DNA of 64,000 nt from a virus (taxonomy: Duplodnaviria; Caudoviricetes). The notes beneath the pieces are model-generated. The model was not told the DNA's origin, ran no database searches, and saw only the letters and a program-made list of their open reading frames with translations. This document shows, in pieces, positions 902 through 41,000 of this stretch. The stretch spans positions 1 to 64,000 of the IMG/VR virus record IMGVR_UViG_3300037751_000591. The stretch is one strand, 5' to 3'. The first letter of the stretch is position 1; every line of letters starts with the position of its first letter. The position numbers and the translations under genes were made by a program.

Positions 902-2146
902 TTAAGAATCGAAGAGGGGAAGATTGTCGAGTTGGTTCGACGGTGCGCCGGAGCCGGTTCGCAGTTTGGCTTCGAGGTCGAGGTAGGGCTTGCTGATGTC
1001 AAGTCCGATCCAGCGCCGGCCAAGCTCGCGGGCGACCAGCCCGGTCGTGCCCGATCCCATGAATGGGTCGAGCACGATGCCGGGCAGGTGCGGAACCTCG
1101 GCAAGCGAGGCCGCGCAGAGTCCGCGCATTCGGTCAACCCTGTCGCCCATGCCTCCGATCTGCGGCCGGCGGTCGGCAAAGCAGTCGCACGATGGCAGGT
1201 AGCCAAGCAGTTCGGTTTCGTCGAGTTGCCCGCTCGGGCCGGCGACCTTGCGATCCCCTCGGCCTGTCCGTGACGTCGACGCCAGACGCTGAGCCTCGAC
1301 ATTGCGGGTCGGATGCTTGATCCGTTCAATCACTGGCACCCAACCCTGACCGCACTCGGGGCACGTGTACTTCGGGCAGGACGCCGCGATCATCGGCGCA
1401 ATCAGGTCCGGCGGATAGGTCGCCGGATGCCCGCCGCGGTAGCTCGACGTTTTGGTTGTAATTACCGAAGGCGGGTTCTTGTCCAGCCCGAGCAGCCGGC
1501 GGACGGCCTCGTGGTCTGAGAAGTAGCCCATGTTGCGGACGGCCTGTATCACGTATTCATGGGCGCGTGTCCTTCGCCACGATGCACGCCGCGGTCGAAA
1601 GCCGCCGTACTCGCTGCACTGGTCACAGCCGGGGCACTGCTGCCAACTGGTCGGGCCGGTTCGGATCAGGTGAGTCTCGATGCGCCATCCAAGGCCCGGC
1701 TCGGGCATCGGGTCGTCTTTCCACCAAACGGTGTCGTCGCGGATAATCCAGCCGCGCGCTTGCAAAGCGAGCGCGATCCGGTGCGGCAAAAGCAGCAGAT
1801 TTCCATTCGGCACGTCTGCTACCTTGCGCGGCCCGTAGCTGTTGAGCTTGCCGCCGCGCGTGTTGATCTTGCTGGTCATATTGAGTCCGCCGGAGCCAGC
1901 GAAGGTGTCGCCGTAGTTGAGGTACAGCACGCCATCGGGCCGCAGGACGCGGGCAGCGTCGTCAAGCACGGTGACAAGATTAGCAATGTGTTCTTCGGGG
2001 CTTTCCTCGTTGCCGATCTCGCCGAGGCTGCTGGCCTCTTGGTCGCCGTCGTAGTCCCTGACCGCGTAGTATGGCGGACTGGTTGCGACCATGTGCACCG
2101 AATGGTCGGCGAGCGGGATGCGAAACGAGTCAGCCTGTATCAGCAT
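902..2146 (-). CDS. DNA N4C/N6A methyltransferase (beta class)
   Basis: TSPPYY motif IV near N-terminus, HPATYP, DPFMGSGTT motif I near C-terminus. Confidence 0.92.
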   Translation of the reverse strand: MLIQADSFRIPLADHSVHMVATSPPYYAVRDYDGDQEASSLGEIGNEESPEEHIANLVTVLDDAARVLRPDGVLYLNYGDTFAGSGGLNMTSKINTRGGKLNSYGPRKVADVPNGNLLLLPHRIALALQARGWIIRDDTVWWKDDPMPEPGLGWRIETHLIRTGPTSWQQCPGCDQCSEYGGFRPRRASWRRTRAHEYVIQAVRNMGYFSDHEAVRRLLGLDKNPPSVITTKTSSYRGGHPATYPPDLIAPMIAASCPKYTCPECGQGWVPVIERIKHPTRNVEAQRLASTSRTGRGDRKVAGPSGQLDETELLGYLPSCDCFADRRPQIGGMGDRVDRMRGLCAASLAEVPHLPGIVLDPFMGSGTTGLVARELGRRWIGLDISKPYLDLEAKLRTGSGAPSNQLDNLPLFDS

Positions 2147-3749
2147 TATCAAACATCGGCAGCCCATCCAATTGCCCGGTCGGGCCGCTGAACCCCGTGC
2201 GAATGGTGGCCTGCTCGCTCAGATAGGGCCGGCTGATGTCCATGCCGATCCCCCGGCGCAGTAGCTGCTGCGCGACCATAACGGTCGTGCCCGACCCAAC
2301 CATCGGATCGAACACGATGCCCGGCACAGCATCGGCCTGATCTGGCCATGCCGGCACGGCGACGCGCTCCAACCAGCCGCGCTCGATCCAGCTTTCGAGC
2401 AGTTCGGCGGGAACCGGTCGAGCGCCAGCCCGGTCGGTGCGAACGTAGTGCTCGATGGCCGACCCCGCCTCATCTTTCATAGCCTCCAACTGCGGCGACT
2501 TCTTGATCTGCTCGGCGTAGCGGCGCTGCTCGAAGCGCGTAATCAATCGCACGCCCTCATCGACATTGCGCAGCCGGTTCAATCCGCGTCTGCCAGTTGC
2601 TTCGGTCGGGTCTTCGGTGCCGCCGGTACCTGTTGGCGAAGCGATGGTCTCTAGGTCGTCTACTTCGAGTCCGGCATGACAACCACAGGTTGGTCGGTAG
2701 CCATGCACCGTCGTCACTCGCTCCATATGCAGCGTCGTAGTGCCAGTCGCATTCGTGTGGCCGCTATTGGCCGTGTACGGCACAGCGGGGTTCGGGTTGT
2801 CTGGCCTCGGGCGCGGCATGCTGCGGCTGACAATTGGTGCCCATCCTCTCCCGCAGGTGGGGCAGCACCAGCGGGGGCAAAGCGCCTTGACAAAAAACGC
2901 AACGAGGTCGGGCGGAAAGGTCGCCGAGTGCGACGCCTTGTAGGAGGCGGTTGGTATGGTTAGGATCGCCGGCGGATTCGTCATGGTCTCGACAAACGCC
3001 GACCAAAGCTCGGGCAGATCGCGGGGGTCAGGGATTTCCATTACGGACCGCGGGTTCTTGCCGGCCCTGTCAATGCTCACAAAGCCGCGCTGGATTGCAT
3101 CGGGGTCATCAGTGCGCTTGCCATCATAGTCAACATGGCCGCGGCCAGCGCGGGAGTCATGCGCCCAAAGCGCGGTCTCGCGCACCGCCTCTTGGTCCCC
3201 CCAATAACTCAAACCCTTGCTGAACAAGAAGACGAACTCGTAGCTCGATGTGGGCCGCCAGCTAGCTTGGCGCAATCGGCCACTCTCCAGTTCCCATCGC
3301 CAGCCACCGACGTTTTCGGGCAGGGGGTTCGGCTTGTTCCATATCACCGATTGCCGCAGCATCCAGCCGTCGGCCTGCAGCGCCAGCGCAATCCGCGCCG
3401 GCAAGAGCATCAGGTTGCCGCCCGGCACTCCGGCATCAACCCGCTCGTACTCGGGCTGCCAGTTCTTCGACCTCTTGCTCGCTGACTGGACGCCCCGACC
3501 GACTCCGGTGTGAGCATCGCTGTAATTTAAGAGGAATACCCCGTCGTCGCGCAGGACGCGCCTGACCTCGCGGAAGCCTTCGACCAGCCGCCGCACGTGC
3601 TCGTCTATCGTTGCCTCTTCGCCGAGTGGGGCATCGCCCTGATCCCCTTCGTACTTGCGGAGTCCCCAATAGGGGGGGCTGGTGAAAACGCAGTGCACCG
3701 ACCCGTCGGCCAGCGGGATGTTGGCTAGGAAATCGCCTTGTATCAGCAA
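2130..3749 (-). CDS. DNA N4C/N6A methyltransferase (beta class), paralog of the adjacent gene
   Basis: TSPPYW, HSATFP, DPMVGSGTT; TTG start. Confidence 0.92.
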   Translation of the reverse strand: MLIQGDFLANIPLADGSVHCVFTSPPYWGLRKYEGDQGDAPLGEEATIDEHVRRLVEGFREVRRVLRDDGVFLLNYSDAHTGVGRGVQSASKRSKNWQPEYERVDAGVPGGNLMLLPARIALALQADGWMLRQSVIWNKPNPLPENVGGWRWELESGRLRQASWRPTSSYEFVFLFSKGLSYWGDQEAVRETALWAHDSRAGRGHVDYDGKRTDDPDAIQRGFVSIDRAGKNPRSVMEIPDPRDLPELWSAFVETMTNPPAILTIPTASYKASHSATFPPDLVAFFVKALCPRWCCPTCGRGWAPIVSRSMPRPRPDNPNPAVPYTANSGHTNATGTTTLHMERVTTVHGYRPTCGCHAGLEVDDLETIASPTGTGGTEDPTEATGRRGLNRLRNVDEGVRLITRFEQRRYAEQIKKSPQLEAMKDEAGSAIEHYVRTDRAGARPVPAELLESWIERGWLERVAVPAWPDQADAVPGIVFDPMVGSGTTVMVAQQLLRRGIGMDISRPYLSEQATIRTGFSGPTGQLDGLPMFDNADTG

Positions 3750-17672: not shown

Positions 17673-18674
17673 TTGCCCGCCAAACGCGCATTGATTACCG
17701 GCATCACCGGTCAGGACGGTTCATACCTCGCCGAGCGACTCTTGGCTCAGGACTACGTTGTGTACGGACTTGCCCGCCAATCATCGAGTGGCCGCAATCT
17801 CAGCAACCTGCAACCCGCTATGCGCGCATGGGGCGACCGGCTGCATCTGCTCGCCGGCGACATGCTTGATTCGGCCACGGTTCGCTCAGCCGTTCAGGAC
17901 TCCCGACCGCACGAGGTCTACAACCTCGCCGCGCAATCCTTCGTCGCCGACAGTTGGAAGATGGCGACGTATACGATGGAAGTAAATGCCATGGGGTTCG
18001 TGCACCTGCTCGAAGCGGTCGCCGACCTCGACCCATCCATCCGCGTCTATCAGGCGTCAACCTCAGAAATGTTCGGCAACGTCAGCGCGAGCGGCATGCT
18101 CAACGAAGAGTCGCAAATGCGCCCGCGCTCACCCTATGGTGCGGCCAAGCTCGCCGCCCATCGAATGGCGGCGGTCTACCGCGAGTCGTACAACCTGTTC
18201 ATCGCCTGCGGCATCTGCTTCAATCATGAGTCGCCGCGGCGCGGTGAAATGTTTGTGACCCGCAAGATTGCGAGGGGCGTTGCCGAGATCAAGCTGAACA
18301 TGCGTGACGTGATAGCGCTCGGCGACCTGTCGCCTCACCGTGATTGGGGCTTCGCCGGCGATTACGTGGTTGCCATGCATCAGATGCTGCAGGCCGACGA
18401 GCCGGCGGATTACGTGATCGCCACAGGCGAATCACATGCGGTTCGTGACTACTTGCTGGCCGCGCTCGAGGTCGCCGGCCTGCCGCCAGACATCGAGCGC
18501 TACGTCTGGCATGACAAGGCGCTGCTCCGCCCCGCCGAGATTTTCAAACTTCGTGGCGATAGCTCGCGCATTCGCCACACGCTAGGCTGGACTCCAGCCA
18601 TGTCGTTTGGGACGCTGGTCGAGGTCATGGTTGAGACCGAGATCGAGCGCGCCCGGCTTCGCAAGCGCGCATAA
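17673..18674 (+). CDS. gmd: GDP-mannose 4,6-dehydratase
   Basis: ALITGITGQDGSYLAE, YNLAAQS, YQASTSE, PRSPYGAAK, FNHESPRRG, RDWGFAGDYV. Confidence 0.95.
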   Translation: MPAKRALITGITGQDGSYLAERLLAQDYVVYGLARQSSSGRNLSNLQPAMRAWGDRLHLLAGDMLDSATVRSAVQDSRPHEVYNLAAQSFVADSWKMATYTMEVNAMGFVHLLEAVADLDPSIRVYQASTSEMFGNVSASGMLNEESQMRPRSPYGAAKLAAHRMAAVYRESYNLFIACGICFNHESPRRGEMFVTRKIARGVAEIKLNMRDVIALGDLSPHRDWGFAGDYVVAMHQMLQADEPADYVIATGESHAVRDYLLAALEVAGLPPDIERYVWHDKALLRPAEIFKLRGDSSRIRHTLGWTPAMSFGTLVEVMVETEIERARLRKRA

Positions 18675-18750: not shown

Positions 18751-19767
18751 ATGCTTAAGAGATTTTCACCGTTCGCCGTGATTGCCCTGTCCGTATTGCT
18801 GCTGGTCGCAGCCGCGTTTGCTATCAGCGCGGTTGTTGCCGAGGCTGCACCGAACAGCACGGGCGGCGACGACAAATGTTACGGCGACTGTCCGAGCTTC
18901 ACCTTCGAGGCGAGCCGAGAGGTATGTCCGAGCGGATGGTTCCCGATCAATCATGGCGAGCACAAGGGTGAATGCGGTCGGTTCATCCAAGAGTTTCCTT
19001 TTATCGAGTTCACCAGCAAGGTGACGGAAACCTTTGGCCCTATCGACTTCACTTACGACAAGTCGAACGATCCCAAGAAGTGCCATCGCCCGACGGCATC
19101 GAGTCTAGGCATCCCATCATGGGCGCGCGACGATTACAACGGCCAGTTCAAGGAATGGCTGAATGCGCCTGAGGTCGAATGCTACGAGACCTGCGATGAG
19201 ACCATCGAGCAAGAGCCGATTGTTGAGTATGGTCCATGGTCGGATTGGACATGGGACGGTGCCAACAACAGGTTCGAGCGCTCGCGCACGGTCACAACGA
19301 CGATCAATCATGTGGACGCCAAGGACGGCGAAACCATTTGTGACCGCGACGTAAGCGAGGAAACCGAGCATCAGTATCGTGACCCCGATCAGGTGATCGT
19401 CGGCGTCGAGTTGTCGTGCGGCCCCGAATCCGAGGGCGGGAACGTTTACCAATCCTACGCCAAGATCACGGTCGAGCCGTCTGGCGGTGCAACCCTGACC
19501 TTTGACGGCCAAGACTTTACCGAAACGACCGTGGTGTACGCTGGCTTCAAGACCTACAACTGGTCGGCTGTGGCTGCCGATGGCTTCAACATCGTCGGCG
19601 ACGACAGCGGCAGCGTGAAGATCAACAGGTCCGAATGCAACGATCCGCCTCCGCCTCAGGACAACTCGGGCGGCGGCGACAGCCCCTTGGTTGTGTGGCT
19701 CACGATCTTGGGGGCTGCGCTGGTTGGGGCCGGCATCGCGTTTCGCCGGTCGCGCCGAACTGCCTGA
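18751..19767 (+). CDS. secreted Cys-rich surface protein with C-terminal sorting-signal-like tail
   Basis: N-terminal signal peptide (MLKRFSPFAVIAL...AEA); C-terminal PPPPQDNSGGG + TM helix + RRSRR. Confidence 0.75.
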   Translation: MLKRFSPFAVIALSVLLLVAAAFAISAVVAEAAPNSTGGDDKCYGDCPSFTFEASREVCPSGWFPINHGEHKGECGRFIQEFPFIEFTSKVTETFGPIDFTYDKSNDPKKCHRPTASSLGIPSWARDDYNGQFKEWLNAPEVECYETCDETIEQEPIVEYGPWSDWTWDGANNRFERSRTVTTTINHVDAKDGETICDRDVSEETEHQYRDPDQVIVGVELSCGPESEGGNVYQSYAKITVEPSGGATLTFDGQDFTETTVVYAGFKTYNWSAVAADGFNIVGDDSGSVKINRSECNDPPPPQDNSGGGDSPLVVWLTILGAALVGAGIAFRRSRRTA

Positions 19768-19793
19768 TCCTCGCAACCTTTCGTAACCCAAGA

Positions 19794-19827
19794 GAGGCGG
19801 GGCCAGCCCCGGCCCCGCCTCATCTTT
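19794..19827 (+). terminator. GC hairpin, possible terminator or attenuator
   Basis: GAGGCGGGGCC-agcccc-GGCCCCGCCTC with weak U tail. Confidence 0.45.
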
Positions 19828-19841
19828 CCGCCGGAGGGAAG

Positions 19842-20759
19842 ATGGCAAAGCCTGAGATTCACTTCAAGCGCATCGGCGTTCTGTATGTGATCGTGGCGCT
19901 GGTTGCGCTGCTCAATGTGCTGGTCCTTCTGCTCGCTGCCGAACAGCGACGCGATGCTCAGCGCCAGTCCGAGACCGTCATGGCGACAGCGCTCGCACTC
20001 GCCAATGTTTGGGCGACGCCGATACCGTTTCAGCCTGAGCCGACCACCGGCCCGACGGAATACGTCGAGCCGACCATCACGCCGCTGCCGTCGCCGACCG
20101 CCGGCCCCTACACCGTGGGGCCAATTAACTTCGACGACGGCAGCGCGCCGATTTCCATTCTCATAGGCGAATCACGGGTCGCCGACTCCATCCTGATCCC
20201 TGCATTCATTCCGATCTCATGGGACGCCCAATACGAGTCCGAAGATGACCTGTTCGCCGCCTACCGCAACACCGGTCTGGCGTGGCAGCCGGAGAGCCTC
20301 GGCTTCGGCGTGTGGCTGCACTCGGGCACGCTCGACGGCGTTGGCCTGTCGATGTACGAGTTTCAGCAGCGGGTCGAACTGGACGAGTCCGGCAACCGGC
20401 ATGACGCCCGCCACGTCGAGTTCGCGCTGCATGAGGCGGTCGTGGGGCGACCGGCCCTTGTCGTTCAGGGCGATTGCACCTTCGGTTCGTGCACGACCGC
20501 CAACTTCCTCGTGACCGACGCCATCCGCATCCCGCCAGACAAAGTAGCTGACTCGCAGCAATACCTGACGAGCGACGCCTACGACTGGATTGCCGTCAAC
20601 TACGGCATCGCGACGGCCAACGCCTTCGCGGGATCAGACACGTTCTTCATCCGCACCTGTGGCCGGCAGGCGGCTGGCGAGGTCTATGACGACACGCGCC
20701 CGTACTGGCAGCAGTCGCGGTTCTTGATTGCGTTCAAGTTCATCAGCGCAGCGGAGTAG
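19842..20759 (+). CDS. sortase-like membrane-anchored cysteine transpeptidase
   Basis: N-terminal TM, Pro/Thr linker, WLHSG (His), FFIRTC (TLxTC-like Cys), SRFLI (Arg). Confidence 0.6.
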   Translation: MAKPEIHFKRIGVLYVIVALVALLNVLVLLLAAEQRRDAQRQSETVMATALALANVWATPIPFQPEPTTGPTEYVEPTITPLPSPTAGPYTVGPINFDDGSAPISILIGESRVADSILIPAFIPISWDAQYESEDDLFAAYRNTGLAWQPESLGFGVWLHSGTLDGVGLSMYEFQQRVELDESGNRHDARHVEFALHEAVVGRPALVVQGDCTFGSCTTANFLVTDAIRIPPDKVADSQQYLTSDAYDWIAVNYGIATANAFAGSDTFFIRTCGRQAAGEVYDDTRPYWQQSRFLIAFKFISAAE

Positions 20760-20764
20760 CAGCT

Positions 20765-21367
20765 ATGGATTATGCAGAGTGGCACCGCATTCAAACGGAA
20801 GTGCACGGCCAGATCGTCAAGCCGGTCGAGTATCACCTTGCCGAGCAAGCAGCGCTCAAATACTTCTTCGGCGACCTGCACCGCGATCTTCGCATTCTGG
20901 ACGTTGGCTGCGGCATCGGCCTTGGCCTCGCCTATCTGGAGCGCATGGGGTTCGTGAATGTGCATGGCGTCGAAGTGAACGAGCGCAAGGCGTTCGTCGG
21001 GCAGTGCTTCGGCCTGAGCGTCGTGACCGGCGACATCGGCGAGTTGAGCACGGTTGAGAAGCAAGCCTTCGACGTTATCTATTGCTCGCATGCGTTCGAG
21101 CATGTGCACGATCCTGACAGGGCACTCGCCGGCATCCGTCGGACAGCGGCCAAGGACGCCCGCGCCTTTTTCATTCTGCCGTATCCCGACACCGGCGACC
21201 CCACAGCCCACTGCGCGTCCGAAGCGCTCGGCCTGCGGGTCAAGGATGATGGCGAGTCCGTGGCCCGCTGGTTCACCGACCGCGGACTGCGGCTGATTGA
21301 CAAGCGCTTTTCGAGCCAGCGTGAGCCGGAGGTCTGGCTGCAATTCCGCAAAGGATCGAGCGAATAA
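20765..21367 (+). CDS. class I SAM-dependent methyltransferase
   Basis: ILDVGCGIG, FDVIYCSHAFEHV. Confidence 0.88.
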   Translation: MDYAEWHRIQTEVHGQIVKPVEYHLAEQAALKYFFGDLHRDLRILDVGCGIGLGLAYLERMGFVNVHGVEVNERKAFVGQCFGLSVVTGDIGELSTVEKQAFDVIYCSHAFEHVHDPDRALAGIRRTAAKDARAFFILPYPDTGDPTAHCASEALGLRVKDDGESVARWFTDRGLRLIDKRFSSQREPEVWLQFRKGSSE

Positions 21368-21906
21368 TGACAAGTCTTGGCGGCGTGGCAATGTTTTTCA
21401 CCTTGTTTGTGTTTGGTATTACCTGTTTTCTGGCGGGCCTCGCTTTTGAAGGGAGCAACCGCCGAGAGCGGGCATGGCTCTTGTTTTGCTTCGCGGCCAG
21501 TGTTGGCAGCATGACTATGGTCTCGCTGGTGGGCACCTTGTTGGGGAGGTAGTGCCATGACGATGGTTGCTGGCCCGGCCGTGACGGTCTTCCTGTTGGT
21601 GGCTGGCTTTGCGGTTTGTTTGACCGCGATGTACACCTTGATCGTGTCCGCGGCCGATCGTGATTGGCCCCTTCTTCCCGTCGGCGTCATGGCGCTGCTT
21701 GGCGGTTACTACCTGTTGCTGCTGGCGCTTGCCATGGCCGGCGGTCGCATGTTCTGATGGCCGGTCCCGATGGGCAGCCGCCGTGCGGAACTGACGATGC
21801 CCTGAACGCTAGGGCCTTCCTTTTAATACTACCGTTCTCGGTTGCATTATGTTCCGCCGTCGGCTATATTTTGTGGACCGTTCTCACCCCCTGACTGGAG
21901 TCACCG

Positions 21907-23753: not shown

Positions 23754-24497
23754 ATGACCATCCAGCCGCAGCTTCTTGACGGTTATTCGTTCGTCGGGCG
23801 CTGCCCTGTGTGTGGGGCAATCGGGTTCGCTATCGCCATGAGCAGGGTCGAAGATACCGGCCCGGAGATCGCGGCGCTCAAAAGCGAGGGATTTAAGCTC
23901 GAATGGGTGACATCGGCTACGGTGAGGGGGGGGAAGTGGGGCAAGTGCAAGCACATGAAGCTGGCCGACGAGTTCCGCGAAAAGGTGCGCCGGCATCCGA
24001 TGGACACCGAGTACGGTGAAAGCGCGGTCGAGCACTGGATCGACTTTTGGACTAACTTGATAGAGGAAGAGGAAGGGACCGAGACCATGCAGGGCAATGA
24101 CGCGGCCAGAAGCCGGCAGCAAGCTATAGCCGGCATCGACTTTAGCGACGGTGTTCGGGCCATTGTTGCCGAACGGTTGCGCCAGATCGAGGAAGAGGGC
24201 TGGACCGTCAATCACGATGACCATTGGAAGTCCGGCCAACTGGCGAAAGCCGCCGCCTGCTACGCAACCTACCCCGAGCACATTTTCATTCAGTACAAGA
24301 ATGCTGGCGGAGCCATCGAGTTTCGTGATCCATGGCCGTGGGAACCGCGATTCGACAAGCGGCCGGCGGGCGAAAGCCGCCGCCGCTTGCTGGTCATGGC
24401 CGGCGCGCTCATTGCCGCCGAGATTGATCGGTTGGACCGCGAGCGCAGCGCGGTCATGGCCCAAGCAAACGCCGACGCAACGGAAAGCCTTCCGTGA
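23754..24497 (+). CDS. conserved phage protein
   Basis: ERLRQIEEEGW..HDDH..GQLAKAAACYA...WPW...AGALIAAEIDRLDR motif, common in phages; extra N-terminal CPVC. Confidence 0.7.
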   Translation: MTIQPQLLDGYSFVGRCPVCGAIGFAIAMSRVEDTGPEIAALKSEGFKLEWVTSATVRGGKWGKCKHMKLADEFREKVRRHPMDTEYGESAVEHWIDFWTNLIEEEEGTETMQGNDAARSRQQAIAGIDFSDGVRAIVAERLRQIEEEGWTVNHDDHWKSGQLAKAAACYATYPEHIFIQYKNAGGAIEFRDPWPWEPRFDKRPAGESRRRLLVMAGALIAAEIDRLDRERSAVMAQANADATESLP

Positions 24498-25324
24498 CCG
24501 GCAATGGCGACACCCCCGAAGTCGAGCATGAGTTCGGCTGCTACTGTGGTTATGTGACCACGCTCGACGGCCCGCCGCCGACGGGCGGAGTCGGTCACTG
24601 CCCAAACTGCAACCGCAAGTACACGATCACGATTCTCGACGGCGAGTTACGAGTCGAGTGGTCGGCGATTTTCAAGCGCGTGCTGCTGCTTGATCTGGAC
24701 GGTACTGTGCGCTACGCCCCGCGCAGGCCGTGGCCGGAGAAGCCCGATCAGGTGCGGATATTTCCCGACGTGATTGAGAAACTCGACGAGTTCATCGAGC
24801 AGGACTTTTTCGTGGTTGCGATTACCAATCAGGCCGGTCCTGCCATGGGGCAAGCGCGGCTTGTCGATGTCCAACAGGCGCTGGCCGTTACCATGCAGCA
24901 GCTTTACCCGCGCCTGCACATGGTTCAGGCGTCCTTCGGGCATGACGATGCTGTGGTCGAGACCTTCCGCTATCGCAGCTTCCTTCGCAAGCCTCATTAC
25001 GGCATGCTGGCCGTCGCTGAGCAGACGATGATTGAAGAGGCCGGCATCGTGCCCGATTGGGACCGTTCACTGATTGTCGGCGACGGCGAGGCCGACCTTG
25101 AGCTTGCAAGGTCGGCGCACGTACCATTCGCGTGGGCGTGGGACTTTTTCAACCGCCCGCACCCCGACGAGGGCCGAAGCCCTGAGTGCCGCTACTGTAT
25201 GGGCGACGACGAAGAGGCCGACCCGCATCCGGGTCATAGCGGCGGCGGCCGCTGGTTCCATGCTCATTTGGCGGGCAGCGTATCCTGTGAGGATCAGGAC
25301 TGGTTCATAGGCCGTTATGGGTAG
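24494..25324 (+). CDS. HAD-IIIA phosphatase (GmhB / PNK 3'-phosphatase-like) with N-terminal Zn ribbon
   Basis: DLDGT, ITNQ, RKP, VGD...D motifs. Confidence 0.85.
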   Translation: MTGNGDTPEVEHEFGCYCGYVTTLDGPPPTGGVGHCPNCNRKYTITILDGELRVEWSAIFKRVLLLDLDGTVRYAPRRPWPEKPDQVRIFPDVIEKLDEFIEQDFFVVAITNQAGPAMGQARLVDVQQALAVTMQQLYPRLHMVQASFGHDDAVVETFRYRSFLRKPHYGMLAVAEQTMIEEAGIVPDWDRSLIVGDGEADLELARSAHVPFAWAWDFFNRPHPDEGRSPECRYCMGDDEEADPHPGHSGGGRWFHAHLAGSVSCEDQDWFIGRYG

Positions 25325-28972: not shown

Positions 28973-29490
28973 TGACTGTTGTGGACATGAGCACATGGAA
29001 TCCGGTCGTTTTGGTGCTGGTTGCATGGCCGCTGGTGCTGATTGCTTGGTCGCCATGGGCTGCGATGGCTGTTTACGTGGCGGGCATTGCAGTGATGCTC
29101 TATGTGACCCATTACTTTGTTGAACGCCCCCTTGACGATTTCGGCGCGATTTCTGTTGCAGCCATCTGGCCTGCCTACTACTACATCGGCATTGGCTACG
29201 CTGCGTGGCGATTGCTGCGGTGGGCTGTGAGGCGCATCCTTCCCGTGCTTGACGGCATCATGGTTCGCTTCCTAACGCGCACCATCGACAAGAACGCCAT
29301 GGGAAAGCTGATCGAGCAGCGCTGGTCGCGAGGGCGCATCCGCCGCTACCTGATCGTTCACGACGAGACCGGCGAGCATGCCATCCCGATCCCGCCGCCG
29401 CGTGGAGCGCCGATAGAAAACGTGCTCGACGCCATCGCGTGGACGTTCACAGCAGAAAAGGGCGAATACGAGCCAGCGATAGAGGTCTGA
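28972..29490 (+). CDS. membrane protein with DUF6745-like C-terminus
   Basis: three TM helices followed by IPPP...DAIAWTF...EYEP..E. Confidence 0.55.
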   Translation: MTVVDMSTWNPVVLVLVAWPLVLIAWSPWAAMAVYVAGIAVMLYVTHYFVERPLDDFGAISVAAIWPAYYYIGIGYAAWRLLRWAVRRILPVLDGIMVRFLTRTIDKNAMGKLIEQRWSRGRIRRYLIVHDETGEHAIPIPPPRGAPIENVLDAIAWTFTAEKGEYEPAIEV

Positions 29491-31133
29491 TGCCGCCGTA
29501 TCAAATCGTCACAGCCGAAATCAGCGATTGGCTTCGCAACTACGAAGGGCCGCGCTTTCATGCGGTCCTTTGCGATCCACCGTATGCGCTGATTTCCATT
29601 GCCAAGCGCTTCGGCCCCGGACAGGCCGAAGCGTCTGAGGGCAGCGACGGGCGCTTCCGCCGGTTGTCCGGCGGATTCATGGGGCAAGAGTGGGACGGGT
29701 TCGAGTCCATGCAGGACTATCAGGCATGGGTCGCCGAATGGTCTCGCCTCATGATCGAGAAGGCGCTGCATCCCGGTGCGGTATGCTTGTTCTTCGGGGG
29801 CACGCGCACGTGGCACCGGCTGGCGTCCGGTCTCGAAGACGGCGGATTTGAGGTCTACGACACTTTTATGTGGGTCTATGGTCAGGGATTTCCAAAGTCG
29901 CATGACATCAGCAAGTTCATCGACCAGAAGGCCGGGGCTGAGCGGGAGGTTGTTGAGGAACGGACGCTGAACAACAACCGGTTCGCCGTGTCTGGATCGG
30001 GCGAGCCGCAGGAGCAATACCGCAAGAGCGAGGGCAACGCCAACATTACGGTTCCCGCCACGGCAGATGCCGAGCGGTGGGACGGTTGGGGCACGGCGCT
30101 CAAACCGGCATGGGAGCCAGTGATTATCTGCCGCGCTCCCCGCGGCAGCCTTGGCTATGCCGATCTGGCGCTGCAGCACGGGACGGGCGCGCTGAACATC
30201 GACGGCAGCAGAATTGAGGGGCCGGCAGGCCCCGGCGTTTGGGGCACAAGCAACGAAACGATCAATACCGACCGGAAGTTCAATACGTCGCCCGCCATGC
30301 AGGAATATCGCAGCCAGCGTCATCAATCAGGCCGATGGCCGGCCAACTTCGGCCTTGTCCATGACGAGCGCTGTGTCCGCGTCGGCCAAGTCGAAGGCAA
30401 GGCACGCGTTATCAACCGCTGGAAAGACGGCATGAAGCCGTTTGGCGGCGGTGCCGGCGGCGAGTATGAGACCGTTCACCCGTCCCGCGAGGGTGAGGCA
30501 TCGGCCGATCGCACCTACGAAGACAAGGGCGGCACGAACTTTGCGATGAAGCCCGGCGGCAGGCGCGATCCCGATACCGAGTCGGTTGATCTGTGGGCCT
30601 GTGTTCCGGGCTGCCCTGTGCGCGAGCTTGACGAGCAGGCCGGCTATGCGCGCAGCGGCGGCTATCCCGAACGCCGGCAGTATGACCAAACCCGCTTGGT
30701 CTACGGAAAGTACAGCGGCGAGATATCCGATCCCAAGTTCCAAAATACCGCCGGTTACGTCAGCCGGTTCTTCTACTGCTCGAAGGCAAGCAAGTCCGAG
30801 AGAGACCTTGGCCTTGAAGATTTCCATTGGCGAAGGACTGATTCCGGTTGGGAGCGGATAAGCGACCCCGCCGCCTATCCCGACGACCGGATCATCACTG
30901 GCAACGTTCACCCCACTGTCAAACCGCTCGACCTGATCCGCTATCTGGCCCGCATGGTGCTGCCGCCTGAACTTGACGGACCGCGGCGCATCCTTGTACC
31001 CTTCGCGGGTTCAGGTTCGGAAATGATTGGCGCACGACAGGCCGAGTGGGATGAAGTAGTGGGCGTCGAGTTATCGGAGGCATTCGCGGCGATAGCAGAG
31101 GCACGCCTGCTCGCCAATATTGGCATGTTCTAA
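29490..31133 (+). CDS. DNA adenine methyltransferase (beta class, large insertions)
   Basis: CDPPY, GFPKS, ALKPAWEP, HPTVKP, PFAGSGSE. Confidence 0.92.
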   Translation: MPPYQIVTAEISDWLRNYEGPRFHAVLCDPPYALISIAKRFGPGQAEASEGSDGRFRRLSGGFMGQEWDGFESMQDYQAWVAEWSRLMIEKALHPGAVCLFFGGTRTWHRLASGLEDGGFEVYDTFMWVYGQGFPKSHDISKFIDQKAGAEREVVEERTLNNNRFAVSGSGEPQEQYRKSEGNANITVPATADAERWDGWGTALKPAWEPVIICRAPRGSLGYADLALQHGTGALNIDGSRIEGPAGPGVWGTSNETINTDRKFNTSPAMQEYRSQRHQSGRWPANFGLVHDERCVRVGQVEGKARVINRWKDGMKPFGGGAGGEYETVHPSREGEASADRTYEDKGGTNFAMKPGGRRDPDTESVDLWACVPGCPVRELDEQAGYARSGGYPERRQYDQTRLVYGKYSGEISDPKFQNTAGYVSRFFYCSKASKSERDLGLEDFHWRRTDSGWERISDPAAYPDDRIITGNVHPTVKPLDLIRYLARMVLPPELDGPRRILVPFAGSGSEMIGARQAEWDEVVGVELSEAFAAIAEARLLANIGMF

Positions 31134-31142
31134 GGAGCAGCC

Positions 31143-31871
31143 ATGGCGTCAGACAAGTCAGGCATGCCGTCCGGACGGGAGGGCCAGTGCGAGGCCCGCA
31201 CGAAGACCTGCCGGAGCTGCAAAGTCAGGTTTACCAAGGGCGACAAATCGTGGGAGTGCCACAATTGCGGCGAGCCGCGGCGCTGCACGAATGATGCGAT
31301 CCAAGCCCGCACATCCTGCCGGGTGCACGGCGGCAACGGCGGCCGACCCCCGACCGAGACCAAGTTCAAAGTAGCCTCAGTGTGGGCCGAGAGCTATGCC
31401 CACGCCATCAATCATCCCGACCTGCTCAGCTTGCAGCCCGAGATCGCGCTGGTCATGTCGCGCATCAGCCAGCTTATGGACCGCCTCGAGCAGGTGGACG
31501 TATCCACTGTTCACAAGCCGACTCTCATCGCCGCCGACGAAATCGAGCAGGCTGCGCTCAGCGGCAACATGGGAATGCTGGCCGTCGGACTCCGCAACTT
31601 GCGTCGAGCGCTCGATCCCATCAGCATCGAATACTCGGTCTACAATCAACTCATGGAGAACATCGACATGACCCGCCGGCTGGTCGAGGTCGAGCGCCGC
31701 CACTTGGCCGAGAACAAGCGCGTGGTCGAGTTGACGTTCATGCTTGAAGTCATGATCGCGATAACCTACATAACGATGAAGTACATTCCGACTCATCAGG
31801 ACCGGGCCGCTGCTGCGAATGAACTTAAAGAGTATTTCCCCACCGGATCAGATATCACCGTTCCGGCTTAG
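31143..31871 (+). CDS. terS: terminase small subunit (HGG motif type)
   Basis: Cys-rich N-terminus, CRVHGG, position immediately before TerL. Confidence 0.65.
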   Translation: MASDKSGMPSGREGQCEARTKTCRSCKVRFTKGDKSWECHNCGEPRRCTNDAIQARTSCRVHGGNGGRPPTETKFKVASVWAESYAHAINHPDLLSLQPEIALVMSRISQLMDRLEQVDVSTVHKPTLIAADEIEQAALSGNMGMLAVGLRNLRRALDPISIEYSVYNQLMENIDMTRRLVEVERRHLAENKRVVELTFMLEVMIAITYITMKYIPTHQDRAAAANELKEYFPTGSDITVPA

Positions 31872-34389
31872 CATCGCGCCGGATTACGTCGCTGAACTAA
31901 ATAAGATCGCCTTGCCGGACCAGCCGGATGAACTCCAGCGCCGGCAAGAGGCGAGCGAGTCGCTGCTTGCTTTCACGCAGTACACCTTCCCCAACTACAA
32001 AGCCGACAAGTTCCATAAGCACCTTGCCGAGGCGCTGACTCGCATTGTCATGCGCGCCAAGGAAGGCAAGTCGTCAAGTCTCATGCTGTGGGCACCCCCG
32101 CAGCACGGCAAGCTGTGTGCTCATAGCACGCCGGTGCTCACAAGCAAGGGTTGGCGAACGCACGGCGACTTGCGCCCCGGCGATTATGTCTATGGCCGTT
32201 ATGGGCAACCCGTGCGCGTGATCGCCATATCGGAGCAAGGCATTGCCGACCGTGAAGTAGAGTTCAGCGACCACTCCGCTATTCGCTGCCATGCGAAGCA
32301 TGAGTGGAGCGTCTTCGACAGAAGTATGAGCAGCGAACACAGACATCGGCCATTCATTTGGGAAACCGATGCACTGCGTGAGCACGGGCTGATTTATGGC
32401 AAGCGCGGCAATCGCGGCTCGCGCAGCGTTTTTCAACTGGATGCCCCTGTTGGCATCAAGGGTCGTCACCGCGATCTTCCGGTTGATCCCTATGTGCTCG
32501 GTGTCTGGCTCGGTGATGGCACCGAATCGAAGAACTGTGTTGTTTATCATCCGTCGAACCGGGCCATCGTTGACAGAATGGCCCGGCACGGCATGCTGCT
32601 GACTGCCGGCAGCACTCACTCCGAAACCGGCTGCGAGACTGGTTACTTTCGCGAGCTTTATGGTCAACTCAACAGCGCTGGCCTGCTTGGCAACAAACAT
32701 ATCCCCGACGCCTACTTTACGTCGTCTATCGAACAAAGACTTCAACTGCTTGCTGGTCTGATTGACACTGATGGTTATGTGTACCCGCGCAATGGCCGGA
32801 CGGTATTTTCTACTGGCAACGACCGACTCGTGCGTGATGTTTCTCGACTGATTGCGACATTGGGCTGGCGGGTTACACATTCTTGGGCCGAGCCTGCTAT
32901 CTCATCGTCTGGCATCAGGGGCCGGCAGCCCGTTTGCCAGATCACATTCAACCCCACGGTCGACATACCGGTAGAGCTTGGCCGCAAGAAGAATCCGAAG
33001 ATCGAGCCAATCGAACGCCGCCGGTCCATTGTTGACATTCGAGACATCCCCCCCGAGCCGGGTCGCTGCATTCAGGTCGAGGGCGGCATTTATCTCGCTG
33101 GCGACCGCCTGATCCCGACCCACAACAGCGAATTGGTTTCGACTCGCCTGCCGTCATTCTGGCTGGCGCACAACACCGAACTGCCCGTGGCGATGGTCAG
33201 CTATGCCGCCTCGCTTGCCAAGCGCAACTCGCGCTATGCGCGTTCAGTCATGGACTCGCCGTTCTACCAAGAAATCTTCCCCGGCATCATGCCCGATGAG
33301 AAGAACTGGCGTATCGAGGATTGGCACGTCAAGAACCGCAAGGGATACGCGATGGCCGTCGGTGTTGGCGGCCCGATCACCGGCCACGGCTTCGGCCTCG
33401 GCCTGATTGACGACCCTATCGAAAATTGGGCGGCTGCGCAGTCGGAAACGCTGCGTGAGACCATCTGGCAGTGGTGGTTGGGCACGTTCCGCACCCGTTT
33501 GTGGGAAGGCGCGTCCATCATTTTCATGATGACCCGCTGGCACGAAGATGATCTGGCGGGCCGCATTCTGGACCAAGAGGGTACGGTCGAAGAGGGCGGC
33601 GAATGGGAAGTGCTGTCCTATCCGGCGCTGGCCGAAGACCCTGAGACCGACCCGCTCGGGCGCAAGGTTGGCGAACCGCTGGCCCCGTCGCGCTACTCGC
33701 GCAACTGGCTGGTCAACTTCCGTGATAAGTCGGTCGAGCAGGTCTGGCAGGCCGAGTATCAGCAGCATCCGGTTCCGCCATCGGGCGACTTCTTCAAGGT
33801 CGGGCGCATCGAACTGGTCGAGGCTATCCCCGCCGAGCTAGGGCGCGTGATCCGCGGCGTGCCCGTGGCGCTTACCGGCGGAGCACGCTATTGGGACTTG
33901 GCCGGCACCGAGCGAAAGACGGCCAAGCGCGAGCCGGACTCCACTTCGGGATCGCTCATGAATCAGCATGTCGGCCTCTATTACTGGTTGGACAATATCA
34001 ACGTTCAGTACGGGCCAGATCGAGTCGAGCAGATTATTAAGCAGACGGCCAACCTCGACGGCGACAGGGTTCGCATCCGTATCGAGCAAGAGCCGGGGCA
34101 GTCGGGCAAGGCGCAGATCGCGCATTACGTCACGCTGCTGGCCGGCTTCGACGTTGAGGGCATCCCGTCGAGCGGCGACAAGATGGTGCGGGCGGCGGCG
34201 TTCGCGGCGCAGGTAAACTCGGGTAATGTAAGGATGTTGAAAGCGCCGTGGAACAAGAAGGTGTTGGCTGTTCTTGCCAACTTCCCCCACGGTCGGGAAG
34301 ATGATGATGTAGACTCCGGTGCCGGCGCGTTCAATTCACTGGACCTCGAAGGCAAGAAATGGCGGAAGCAGGGCTTTGCAAGCGTCTAA
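31819..34389 (+). CDS. terL: terminase large subunit, intein-containing
   Basis: PPQHGK|SE Walker A, LIDDP Walker B, MTRWHEDDL, YQQxP, WDLA, EQEPGQSG, DDDVD. Confidence 0.95.
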   Translation: MNLKSISPPDQISPFRLSIAPDYVAELNKIALPDQPDELQRRQEASESLLAFTQYTFPNYKADKFHKHLAEALTRIVMRAKEGKSSSLMLWAPPQHGKLCAHSTPVLTSKGWRTHGDLRPGDYVYGRYGQPVRVIAISEQGIADREVEFSDHSAIRCHAKHEWSVFDRSMSSEHRHRPFIWETDALREHGLIYGKRGNRGSRSVFQLDAPVGIKGRHRDLPVDPYVLGVWLGDGTESKNCVVYHPSNRAIVDRMARHGMLLTAGSTHSETGCETGYFRELYGQLNSAGLLGNKHIPDAYFTSSIEQRLQLLAGLIDTDGYVYPRNGRTVFSTGNDRLVRDVSRLIATLGWRVTHSWAEPAISSSGIRGRQPVCQITFNPTVDIPVELGRKKNPKIEPIERRRSIVDIRDIPPEPGRCIQVEGGIYLAGDRLIPTHNSELVSTRLPSFWLAHNTELPVAMVSYAASLAKRNSRYARSVMDSPFYQEIFPGIMPDEKNWRIEDWHVKNRKGYAMAVGVGGPITGHGFGLGLIDDPIENWAAAQSETLRETIWQWWLGTFRTRLWEGASIIFMMTRWHEDDLAGRILDQEGTVEEGGEWEVLSYPALAEDPETDPLGRKVGEPLAPSRYSRNWLVNFRDKSVEQVWQAEYQQHPVPPSGDFFKVGRIELVEAIPAELGRVIRGVPVALTGGARYWDLAGTERKTAKREPDSTSGSLMNQHVGLYYWLDNINVQYGPDRVEQIIKQTANLDGDRVRIRIEQEPGQSGKAQIAHYVTLLAGFDVEGIPSSGDKMVRAAAFAAQVNSGNVRMLKAPWNKKVLAVLANFPHGREDDDVDSGAGAFNSLDLEGKKWRKQGFASV
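32113..33126 (+). mobile_element. 338-aa intein with LAGLIDADG homing endonuclease, class-3 signature
   Basis: inserted in Walker A (GK|L...THN|S); LGVWLGDG and LAGLIDTDG; HEW, RCIQV and PTHN blocks. Confidence 0.9.
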
Positions 34390-37802: not shown

Positions 37803-38092
37803 TTCTGGCCTACCTGCTGGTGGGCAGGCTGCTTGTTTGGGTTGCTGAGACCAGCGGCCCGACCAAGCGCATCTGGCGTCTGCATCCATTCTTAGAGGAA
37901 TTGGGCGAGTGCGACTTTTGCCTCGGCTGTTGGATATTTCCGGTGCTGGCCGCTTTGTTTGAAGTGAATCTGACCGCGCCGTTCTACTGGCCGGTAGCAA
38001 GCGAGATCATCACGGGCATTGCGACAGCGTTCGGTGTGCATCTGGCGAGGCTTGGATGGCAGACGAAGTTCGGAGTGGAAATCCTCTCATAA
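37784..38092 (+). CDS. DUF1360-like membrane protein
   Basis: TM helices around ELGECDFCLGCW. Confidence 0.55.
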   Translation: MGAGTVVLAYLLVGRLLVWVAETSGPTKRIWRLHPFLEELGECDFCLGCWIFPVLAALFEVNLTAPFYWPVASEIITGIATAFGVHLARLGWQTKFGVEILS

Positions 38093-41000
38093 ACGGCGGC
38101 GTGCCCGCGGTGTTTCGCGATGGCAGGCTGCCTGTCAAGGAGTCGTGTTCGCTTTGCTCGAAGCGAGCCGACTTCTTCGCGTCCCTCAATCACTTCGACT
38201 ACCGCGTCGAAGACACGTTCTGTACTGAATGCCTCGACAGGCAAATCGAACAAAGCGGACCGATCATCGAGTACATCATCCCGCTCGGCGGCGAAGACAG
38301 CCCCGGCACGGTTGTCACCCCCGATGAGTTCATGCGCCTGCTGCGCGGCGAGCCGGTCATTCATGGATTCAACCGGCGCGTCCTGACGTTTGACGATGGG
38401 CCGTTCAGGGTTGTTGAGCGCGGCGGACCGGGGTCGGGGCATCATGGGCACGAAGGCCGCCCCGGAGAGGTTGGAGGTTCGCGGCCGAGTGGGGCCGGCG
38501 GGGAGGTCGCCGAAGACTACGAAGGGCTGGCATCCGATATCCCACCGGAGATTCGGAGCCGACGCTATTTCCATGCGACTTCGCACACAAGCCGAGGCAA
38601 GAGCATTCTTGAGTCGGGCATGGTGCGACCGGGGGAGGCTGGCAGAATAGGGCCACTTGCTCCCGTTGAGGGCCGTGTCTACGTTACACAAGACCCCGAA
38701 TACGCGTTGGTTTATTCGCTCGGTGGTGACATGGCCGGCTCGAATCTCCCTGAACACTGGATCGAAGATGCGGGGCAGTATGGCTACATCTTCGAGATCG
38801 ATCCGCAGGCGTTTACCGACATCCAACCCGACGAAGACGTGATTGGCGAACACATCCATAAAGAAACGTTCCCGTGGCTGAATCGACTTGCGCGGCAGCA
38901 TTTGAGCAGCCGTATGCTGGCGGATGCCCAATTCGGCGAGTATGACGCTTGGGCCGAGGCCGGCAAGAAGTTGGTTGGCTACATGACGCCCGAGCAGAAA
39001 TACGAGATCATCCTGAGCGGCAGCCATGTTTCCGCGCTTGGCGAGCTACCCATTATTGCCGCGTGGCGTGTCGATAAAACGCAGGCCAGCCAGTACGAGA
39101 GATATACCTACGCTGAGGAAGACACCGAAGAAGATCGGCGGCGGCGCATCGACCTGATCTGGCAGCTATCGCAGCCAGTCGAGCGGAGTCTGATTGGCAG
39201 GCACTTCGGTCCGGGCGCACACTCCGGCACCGGCACCGATCAGGACGTGCATGCCGGCGACGGCGAGGGCGGGATTTCCAAAGCAGACGCCACGGGCATT
39301 TGGGGCCTTGGCCTCGACAACAGAAGCCTGCACACGGTTGCCTTCAAGCCGGCGGACAGCGGCGATGATGTCCAGCACTACCGCGAAGTTTCCATCACGC
39401 ATCACCCCTCGCGCAAGCAACCTTATCGAGCAGTCATGGCCTTCGGGCATACGGCGCGGTTTGTGGATGGCCGGCACTGGTTTGACACACTGGCCGAAGC
39501 GAAGCAGGCCGGCGATGCCTATGTCGGCGACTGGTCGGGGAGACCCGTCGAGCGCCACTACGGTCCGGGGCCGCACCCCGGCACGGGCACCGGTCAGGAG
39601 ATACATGCCGGCGAGAGTGAGGGTTCCTATGGTCCGCCGATCCCCGACGTGGCGACCGACGAACAGGTTGCTGGTTACAACCCTGTCGACATCAACAACT
39701 TCCGCATTGTGGGCGTCACCGATCTGTCCGACGCCAAGGGTCGCCTGATCGGGCCGGGAGAGTATGCGGATGCGGTCAGCCGCGTCATGCAGGATTTCTA
39801 CCGACGCACCGGCTTCAAGATGTCGCGGCACGTGATTTCCAATGAATGGATCGCGCTAGCCGAGGCCGGCGGCGGAACGTTCGCCGGCATGGTTTTGCCG
39901 TCCGAGCAGCTTGCCGACAAGCTGCAGGACACGTATGAGGATCAGCTTTACGGTGCATACATTCAGGCCGAAAACACCCTGTTTATCAGTCCTAACACCC
40001 GACTCATGCGGCCCGACCAGCAGCGGTTCAGCTTTGTGATTGCCCATGAGTTGGGGCACTGGCTGCATCATCGGGTTGACCTGAGCGGATTGGAACCTAG
40101 CGAAGAATACTTTGGCGCGATGAGCGACACCTACGGTATGGGCAGGTCGCTCGAAGAAGAATACATCGCCGATCTGATTGCTGCCCACGTGCTCGACGGC
40201 GAGGTTTACCGCTTCCATCGCGAGCAAATGAACCGTCCGCTGACCGACTTCGAGCGGTCGGACGCCGAGGAAGTGATTTCCATTCTCAAGAAGGCCCCCG
40301 TGCTGCGGAGTCGGACCATGACCAAGCGAGCCGAAGATCGCGTGCTGGTCTACTTCCCACAGACCGGCGAAGTGCTTGACGTGCCACGCGACCGGCTGAG
40401 CGAATTGCCCGAAACCGCCGAAATCTTCGGCGACCGCCTGCGTGGGGCCATGAGCGAGCGAGCCATGGGGTTCGGTATCAGCGACCCCTTCATGAGCACC
40501 GACCCCAACATGCCGCTCGACCCCGGCGGGCTTGGCGTCGAGTTCCATGAGCCGGTCCAGTTCGACCCGAAGACGGCAGACCCCGCCTACATCTACGCGT
40601 CGCTTTCGATGAGTCCTCCGCTGCTGGACTTGCAGAAGTACGTGCTTGATTACCTTGACAGCGCCGGCGCAGCCTATGATGCCCAAGAGCCTGAGCGCTT
40701 CCATATCACGCTGCTCTACATCGAGAAGATCGACAACTGGCAGTTGCAGGACCTGATCTCTCACATTCAGTTCCCCGCCGCTTTCACGGTCGAGGGCGTC
40801 CGCCTTGGCACGTTCAAGGAAGCAGACGACAAGCCGCTGGTGCTGATGATCGACCCCGACAATGCCCTGCTGCGCATTCAGCGCGAGCTTTACGAGCGAG
40901 CGGTGCAGATGGGGTTGAAAGTATCCGAGTACAGCCGGCCCGGACACTACAAGCCGCATGTCACGCTGGCCTATGACATGGAGCCGGCAGATCAGCGCAT

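Follow-up and report, generated by a model that had tools for sequence, protein, structure and literature searches.

Two neighbouring open reading frames (ORFs) of a tailed phage, ORF A and ORF B, form the subject of this work. They lie on the plus strand of a window of 64,000 nucleotides, which comprises positions 1 to 64,000 of the IMG/VR virus record IMGVR_UViG_3300037751_000591 (Duplodnaviria; Caudoviricetes) and to which the nucleotide coordinates of the phage genes below refer. ORF B is probably a type-II membrane-anchored cysteine transpeptidase with a sortase fold, with the upstream ORF A as its dedicated substrate. This assignment draws on the anatomy of both genes, the predicted fold of ORF B, the conservation of its residues, and the pairing of related genes in bacterial genomes.

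Predicted fold and catalytic residues of ORF B

ORF B begins with a membrane anchor, followed by a linker and the predicted catalytic domain:

19842-20759, plus strand: ORF B, predicted membrane-anchored sortase-fold cysteine enzyme, 305 aa
19872-19940, plus strand: transmembrane (TM) anchor, aa 11-33, hydrophobic, with K/R residues before it (positive-inside)
20124-20756, plus strand: predicted catalytic domain, aa ~95-305 (~210 aa), after a Pro-rich linker
20319-20321, plus strand: codon of His160 (WLHSG), H in 63/64 family sequences
20658-20660, plus strand: codon of Cys273 (FFIRTCGR), invariant in 64/64, predicted nucleophile
20718-20720, plus strand: codon of Arg293 (QQSRF), R in 62/64

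The wider contexts of the three residues are WLHSGT (H160), FFIRTCGRQ (C273) and QQSRFLI (R293), and their codons were checked. The N-terminal anchor is apparent from the hydrophobic residues 11-33 and from a long N-terminal helix in the structural model, and the catalytic domain is predicted to be extracytoplasmic.

AlphaFold2 models were built without templates. The model based on an alignment of 64 family members reached a predicted local distance difference test (pLDDT) value of 89.3 and a predicted template modelling (pTM) score of 0.77, while a model from only three sequences had a pLDDT of 65. In Foldseek searches against the PDB, the top ~50 matches of the 64-sequence model were all sortases (E 2e-5 to 1e-3, probability 0.96-1.0), and the top 50 of the three-sequence model were sortases throughout. 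Re-alignment with VIA gave a Z of 8.3 and a root-mean-square deviation of 3.4-3.6 Å, with ~126 residues aligned of the ~150-residue sortase A of Streptococcus pyogenes (SpySrtA). The alignment covers SpySrtA 92-228, essentially the whole chain, and residues 99-305 of the model. A VIA search of the whole PDB, independent of Foldseek and comprising 48,161 chains, returned sortases of classes A-F at ranks 1-17 (Z 5.7-7.9). Past rank 17, only coiled coils were found, and these matched the N-terminal helix. Neither L,D-transpeptidases nor caspase-like or other protease folds occur among the structural matches listed by Foldseek and by the all-PDB search. The exclusivity of the matches and the coverage of the full domain argue for a true sortase fold of the modelled protein, despite the moderate Z.

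The secondary structure of the model, assigned by DSSP, consists of the eight strands of a sortase β-barrel with helical insertions (residue numbers of ORF B):

104-108: β1
117-126: β2
144-148: β3
155-159: β4, with His160 directly after it, then two inserted helices
204-211: β5
216-230: β6, then three short helices
267-274: β7, with Cys273 at its end
292-304: β8, with Arg293 at its start

In established sortase structures, the catalytic His follows β4, the Cys lies at the end of β7 and the Arg at the start of β8. The same positions are occupied by His160, Cys273 and Arg293 in the predicted model, and from this strand order the three residues would lie adjacent in space.

An earlier note on this DNA had proposed, from the letters alone, a phage-encoded sortase-like enzyme next to its probable substrate. 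Its coordinates and motifs for ORF A and ORF B proved exact, and the pattern exceeds chance, given the conserved residues of the 64 representatives and the single tail of this type in the phage genome. The sortase-like reading is supported by the near-complete conservation of the three residues at sortase strand positions. The note had named an L,D-transpeptidase fold as a possible refutation; the fold predicted by the model is a sortase barrel instead.

A family related to ORF B

A word-based homology search returned only two relatives of ORF B, both metagenomic, and each contains the motifs that surround His, Cys and Arg in the phage protein. The nearest homolog, P0003, is 65% identical. When an alignment of these three sequences was used for a profile search of 1.84 billion representatives, 63 proteins were found, 38 of them at E≤1e-10, and the resulting family alignment holds 64 representative sequences. 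Residues conserved in at least 90% of this alignment include H160, S161, G162, E179, R229, G274, E280 and R293, with S161 found in 59/64 and G162 in 63/64 sequences. The family signature can be written as (L)W.HSG ... hhh(Y/R)(F/T)CGR.L.GE ... (W/Y).Q(A/S)RFhhh. Nearly all members carry an N-terminal TM or twin-arginine translocation (TAT)-like anchor, followed by a Pro/Thr-rich linker. Judged by profile searches, the family is too divergent for the sortase models of Pfam and NCBIfam.

A genome scan for related loci, performed with a six-sequence sub-alignment, located family members in metagenome-assembled genomes (MAGs) of Anaerolineales/Anaerolineaceae. In profile searches, the family was present in 6/401 sampled Chloroflexota genomes and in 21/401 Anaerolineales genomes (~5%), with one copy, rarely two, per carrier genome. 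Canonical Pfam sortases (PF04203) occur in 115 of 121 Anaerolineales genomes and accompany the new family in nearly all of its carriers. The new family therefore is an add-on to the canonical sortases and not a replacement.

Partner genes with sorting-type tails

The co-occurrence of homologous gene pairs, which the earlier note had suggested checking, is borne out by these loci. The same-strand gene immediately upstream of the enzyme ends in a short motif, a TM helix and a basic cluster (motif-TM-basic) in 20 of the 26 loci with readable upstream DNA. The tailed gene and the enzyme gene are separated by -22 to +188 nt, in most cases by less than 25 nt. The six loci that lack a tailed neighbour include two that are N-masked and one near miss. 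As background, such tails are found in 15/223 ORFs of the same loci (Fisher 3e-15, a value that is inflated as the loci are related).

The motifs of the cellular partners are mostly PxTG-like and comprise SPVTG, LPGTG, SPQTG, APVTG, HPPTG, HPDTG, HIGTG and (L/P)PTVGPG, with KMGGEGN in a distant clade. One partner tail passes the NCBIfam model LPXTG_anchor (TIGR01167) with 16.2 bits against a cut-off of 15.9, and two more come close. The cargoes are diverse: some are PT-rich proteins of low complexity, one is ice-binding-like (3e-26), and one, at locus L007, is ORF A-like.

The gene for the ice-binding-like protein (NCBIfam IBP_CFB) lies upstream of the enzyme gene at positions 25-1137 of locus L021 (plus strand) and ends in LPGTG-TM-basic. 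Two convergently oriented family members are encoded on this contig, and a separate tailed neighbour accompanies each of them. A conserved small gene of ~90-108 aa is found in two other Anaerolineales MAG loci, at L004 4812-5138 and L002 802-1074 (both minus strand), where it lies divergently upstream of the substrate-enzyme pair. Its product contains the segment ...VGW(D/E)(H/Y)FSYTAQVKDTLK(K/Q)AFEL(I/V)KLI(Q/N)HSPSA..., and it may regulate the pair.

ORF A and its candidate sorting motif

ORF A encodes the probable substrate, a secreted protein with ten Cys residues:

18751-19767, plus strand: ORF A, secreted Cys-rich protein, 338 aa (from translation)
18751-18849, plus strand: Sec-type signal peptide, aa 1-33, ending ...VVAEA|AP, read from the sequence with the cleavage site placed by the AxA rule
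19645-19677, plus strand: candidate sorting motif PPPPQDNSGGG, aa 299-309, at the position of the PxTG-like motif of relatives
19687-19764, plus strand: C-terminal hydrophobic helix (aa 313-331) and RRSRRTA (aa 332-338)

The tail of the protein reads C296-NDPPPPQDNSGGGDSP, followed by the hydrophobic residues 313-331 and then RRSRRTA. A peptide of ORF A that covers the candidate motif is ECNDPPPPQDNSGGGDSPL. Among all ORFs of the 102.7-kb phage genome, ORF A alone carries a motif-TM-basic tail of this type.

Searches of ORF A against Pfam, NCBIfam and PHROG gave no family match except a weak one to TIG, and none of the NCBIfam CTERM models matches it. In the structure Atlas, Big_3_5/Ig-like neighbours were found with TM scores below 0.5, which provides a weak lead only; the C-terminal half of ORF A looks Ig-like.

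Five relatives of ORF A (P0005-P0009), all metagenomic, were identified by word-based homology search, and the tail architecture is kept in them. P0005 is the nearest, with 82% identity. The segment that precedes the helix is PPPPQDGAGGG in P0005, PPP(I/V)xTFD(A/S)GG in P0006 and P0007, and VPETG in P0008. The end of ORF A also has a homolog in the upstream neighbour of the enzyme at L007 (…SGSFNITNSNCNDPSDPPEEHPDTG…; end ...SGSFNITNSNCNDPSDPPEEHPDTGSDMVLALP...), whose pre-helix segment is HPDTG. Because these segments vary from HPDTG to PPPPQDNSGGG across homologs of ORF A, the phage motif, as far as the sequences indicate, derives from a PxTG-type signal by loss of the Thr and is not an unrelated signal. 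The earlier note had claimed a non-LPxTG signal. This holds for the phage copy, in which PPPPQDNSGGG contains no Thr-Gly and no LPXTG-type pentapeptide was found, but not for the wider family, with its mostly PxTG-like motifs, from which the phage motif diverges.

The enzyme P0003 and the substrate P0005 both have a longest contig of 17,767 bp. This match suggests that the enzyme-substrate pair travels, or is conserved, as a unit.

Proposed mechanism

The catalytic activity, the bond that is cut, the acceptor and the role at the surface are proposals built on the features above. ORF A would be exported by the Sec system and lose its signal peptide, after which the C-terminal helix and RRSRR would hold it in the membrane. 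Cys273, helped by His160 and Arg293, would then attack a peptide bond within PPPPQDNSGGG. The likeliest cut would fall near Q-D-N-S, the position of T-G in the relatives. Next, a host envelope amine, most likely that of a peptidoglycan precursor, would resolve the acyl-enzyme, and the Cys-rich/Ig-like ORF A would end up covalently displayed on the infected cell.

The sortases of the host are of the LPXTG type and would not recognise the phage motif, and the phage is therefore proposed to bring its own orthogonal enzyme-substrate pair. A private enzyme and a private motif would make the cassette independent of the host. Superinfection exclusion, receptor masking or adhesion as its purpose is speculation.

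Evidence against the assignment and alternative readings

Several observations weigh against the assignment of ORF B as a sortase-type transpeptidase. ORF B shows no significant sequence similarity to any sortase. It has no match at E≤10 in Pfam or NCBIfam, none in PHROGs, and none to the Pfam L,D-transpeptidase family YkuD. At E≤1, PF04203 has no match anywhere in the phage but does match control genomes, and the Pfam Sortase model matches 0/64 family members. By sequence, ORF B is thus not a member of the sortase family as represented by PF04203 and the NCBIfam sortase models. A search of the family profile against PDB sequences yielded only matches to the low-complexity linker. Comparison with canonical Anaerolineales sortases (7 or 36 sequences) by hhalign was non-significant, with P ~0.04 (0.036 with 36 sequences). 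The sole local alignment superposes FCGR...QARF on TLxTC...R, with Cys273 on the Cys of TLxTC, and is likewise not significant. The greedy full-length alignment misplaces the His and was not used for residue mapping.

A Z of ~8 is only moderate for VIA, and such values can reflect common arrangements. The spacing between His and Cys is 113 aa, far above that of known sortases, and is due to the helical insertions. The identity of the catalytic Arg is in question because a distant subgroup (L024, L037 and L040), with the signature IHSG(L/V)GGE ... ETCGW.(L/M)PGE ... SIYL, has no equivalent of R293 yet keeps that of R229; this second conserved Arg could be the functional one. On the substrate side, the motif of the phage lacks the Thr and is not common to the cellular members.

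Three other readings are each less likely than a dedicated sortase-substrate pair. ORF B could be a sortase fold that serves as a hydrolytic sheddase only, freeing ORF A as a soluble extracellular protein with no ligation to the wall. The evidence from fold, residues and pairing fits such an enzyme equally well, and sortases are known to hydrolyse their substrates if no nucleophile is available. In addition, the Gly-rich stretch past the motif and the conserved acidic residues E179 and E280 are without counterpart in canonical sortases. This reading is nevertheless unlikely, as the enzymes of sortase fold that are known to have motif-TM-basic substrates act as transpeptidases. Moreover, an enzyme and a substrate that are both held in the membrane represent an arrangement for transfer to lipid-linked acceptors, and a protein destined for secretion needs no cleavable anchor. 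Less probable again is an action of ORF B on PxTG/LPXTG proteins of the host, by cleaving or re-sorting them, with the tail of ORF A as a mere anchor. The absence from the phage motif of the Thr-Gly seen in most cellular partners would be explained, and candidate hosts are rich in canonical sortase substrates, given the frequency of PF04203 in the order (115/121 genomes). Against this stands the conservation, across divergent clades, of the enzyme and the immediately upstream tailed gene as a unit. The tail architecture and a Pro-rich/Gly-rich segment before the TM helix are also kept in ORF A homologs, and the closest homologs of enzyme and substrate appear to share a contig.

The resemblance to sortases could, finally, be convergent or an artefact of modelling, with ORF B a non-catalytic or differently catalytic envelope protein. 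The lack of significant sequence homology would be expected in that case, and a Z of at most 8.3 can result from a common arrangement. An unbiased search in which 17/17 of the top globular matches are sortases, from all six classes, makes this very improbable, as do a template-free model with an invariant Cys and a near-invariant His and Arg at sortase positions, and partner genes with sortase-type signals, one of which passes the LPXTG_anchor cut-off.

Two further candidates were tried and rejected. A His...Cys protease of clan CD (caspase/gingipain-like) had been considered from the hydrophobic-block motifs, but no such fold was found among the structural matches and the strand order is sortase-like. 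A GlyGly-CTERM/rhombosortase system was considered for the tail of ORF A, and neither an adjacent rhomboid-type enzyme nor a model match was found.

Phylogeny, origin and host

In a FastTree tree of 94 enzyme sequences, the phage enzyme clusters with P0003 and P0004 (support 97-99), and this group is joined by P0010 and P0013 (support 100). These five sequences share IRTCGRQAAGE and stand apart from the clades of Anaerolineales MAGs. The enzyme of L007, which is encoded beside an ORF A-like cargo, falls in the other major clade, and different enzyme lineages have thus come to be paired with the cargo module.

Searches of IMG/VR with the enzyme alignments or ORF A, and of INPHARED phages at the DNA and protein level, returned no relatives. 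A tblastn search with the large terminase (TerL) gave no clue to the host. The distribution of the family and the guanine-cytosine (GC) content of the record, 60%, are compatible with a Chloroflexota host but are not proof of it.

The phage genome and the surrounding gene block

The phage record has a length of 102,736 bp, with a completeness of 92% as estimated by CheckV, and is recognisable as a phage by its portal, its virion proteins and a TerL with an intein. Searches of the phage detected neither an integrase nor a resolvase, which suggests, without proving it, a lytic lifestyle.

Transcription switches from minus to plus near 17.6 kb, with minus-strand genes upstream of 17490. The plus-strand block that follows contains, in order, gmd, ORF A, ORF B, a methyltransferase gene dependent on S-adenosylmethionine (SAM), and two small ORFs for two-helix membrane proteins. 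The two flanking enzyme genes and the intergenic element are:

17673-18674, plus strand: gmd (GDP-mannose 4,6-dehydratase), Pfam GDP_Man_Dehyd 5.3e-107, first gene of the plus-strand block
19790-19826, plus strand: GC-rich hairpin between ORF A and ORF B, from RNA folding
20765-21367, plus strand: SAM-dependent methyltransferase, Methyltransf_23 1e-16 and Methyltransf_11 1.7e-14, 6 nt past ORF B

Both flanking enzyme genes had been named as neighbours in the earlier note, and the Pfam matches agree. The operon shared with gmd and the methyltransferase suggests a block for remodelling the surface of the infected cell. The two small ORFs (61 and 66 aa) occupy 21367-21757 (plus strand), directly 3' of the methyltransferase. 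Each apparently encodes a two-helix membrane protein that could be holin-like or act as a partner in the surface cassette.

ORF A and ORF B are both preceded by a strong Shine-Dalgarno sequence, GGAGGG, 3 nt ahead of the ATG. The 74-nt spacer between them folds with -39.2 kcal/mol (z -3.47), and none of 200 shuffled sequences was equally stable. The outer stem of the hairpin pairs with the Shine-Dalgarno region of ORF B. A terminator scan did not call the hairpin because its T-run is weak. The hairpin may be an attenuator that keeps the enzyme low relative to its substrate.

Further genes were observed elsewhere in the window. The large terminase gene at 31819-34389 (plus strand) is split by an intein with LAGLIDADG/Hom_end homing-endonuclease domains, and its Terminase_6N and 6C halves flank residues ~295-366. 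An ORF of 2,906 aa at 38056-46776 (plus strand) lies between a portal/MuF-like gene and later head genes. DNA methyltransferases (phrog_67, N6_N4_Mtase) are encoded by three genes at 902-3749 (minus strand) and 29439-31133 (plus strand), two of which lie in tandem; their number suggests heavy anti-restriction methylation. The protein encoded at 24494-25324 (plus strand) has a PNK3P (polynucleotide kinase 3'-phosphatase) domain (2.7e-8) and N-terminal Cys-x-x-Cys pairs, and may act in the repair of RNA or DNA ends.

Comparison with known systems

Sortases are the main route for the covalent attachment of proteins to the wall in monoderm bacteria. They are also widely used as protein-ligation tools, limited mainly by a narrow range of motifs. 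A family that is invisible to current profile libraries would widen the diversity known for these enzymes and add to the candidate ligases. The ORF B family comes with motifs of its own (PxTG variants, PPTVGPG and the PQDNSGGG of the phage) and a ready list of cognate substrates. In the open-access subset of the literature, neither such a family nor a phage-encoded sortase-substrate cassette was found to be described. If the assignment is true, a virus would be able to install a covalent modification of the host surface by a self-contained two-gene module, with implications for adhesion, for superinfection exclusion and for phages that infect Chloroflexota-like hosts, whose biology is little known.

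ORF B resembles the sortases (MEROPS C60/PF04203, classes A-F; for example S. pyogenes SrtA, S. coelicolor SrtE1 and S. aureus SrtB) in its predicted eight-stranded β-barrel, in the placement of its His directly behind β4, of its Cys where β7 ends and of its Arg on β8, and in its N-terminal anchor with a linker. The sortase signature TLxTC...R has its parallel in the hydrophobic strand of the family, followed by x-T/F-C and then ...Q-A/S-R-F-hhhh. As for sortases of classes B, C and D, motif-TM-basic substrates are encoded next door, and PxTG-like motifs are found at most cellular members. Unlike sortases, ORF B is not detectably homologous in sequence to any sortase model, contains ~50 extra residues as inserted helices that separate β4 from β5 and lie around β6/β7, and belongs to a family with the signature HSG...FCGRxLxGE...WxQ(A/S)RF and the additional conserved residues Q175, E179, R229 and E280. 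The phage substrate motif PPPPQDNSGGG, lacking a Thr, differs as well. ORF B cannot be assigned to any one sortase class, as all classes score alike.

A parallel in organisation is sortase B of S. aureus with IsdC (NPQTN), likewise a dedicated sortase whose single substrate is encoded next to it and carries a non-LPXTG signal. The P-Q-D-N of the phage resembles the P-Q-T-N of this signal, which serves as a lead only. SrtB is a clear member of PF04203, whereas ORF B falls outside it; the phage motif has Asp in place of Thr, and the cleavage of ORF A is a prediction. The tripartite tail of a short motif, a TM helix and a basic cluster is also shared with rhombosortase/GlyGly-CTERM, exosortase/PEP-CTERM, archaeosortase/PGF-CTERM and myxosortase/MYXO-CTERM, and the Gly-Gly-rich tail of ORF A recalls GlyGly-CTERM in particular. 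The enzymes of these systems are polytopic intramembrane proteins of unrelated folds, whereas ORF B is single-pass with a predicted extracytoplasmic sortase-like barrel.

A more far-reaching proposal, for and against which the case is evenly balanced, is that the family (HSG...FCGRxLxGE...WxQARF) constitutes a seventh sortase class. It would be native to Anaerolineales, where it would serve its own adjacent substrates side by side with the canonical sortases. From there, a large and apparently lytic phage would have acquired it as an orthogonal cassette of enzyme and cargo with a re-tuned, Thr-less motif. The phage could thereby decorate the wall of the infected cell covalently with its Cys-rich/Ig-like protein, neither relying on the sortases of the host nor competing with them. 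The fold and the logic are those of sortases and the pair is therefore not a new kind of system; what distinguishes it is a phage-borne copy of both enzyme and substrate, and a sequence-divergent family that combines large insertions with a signature and a spectrum of motifs of its own.

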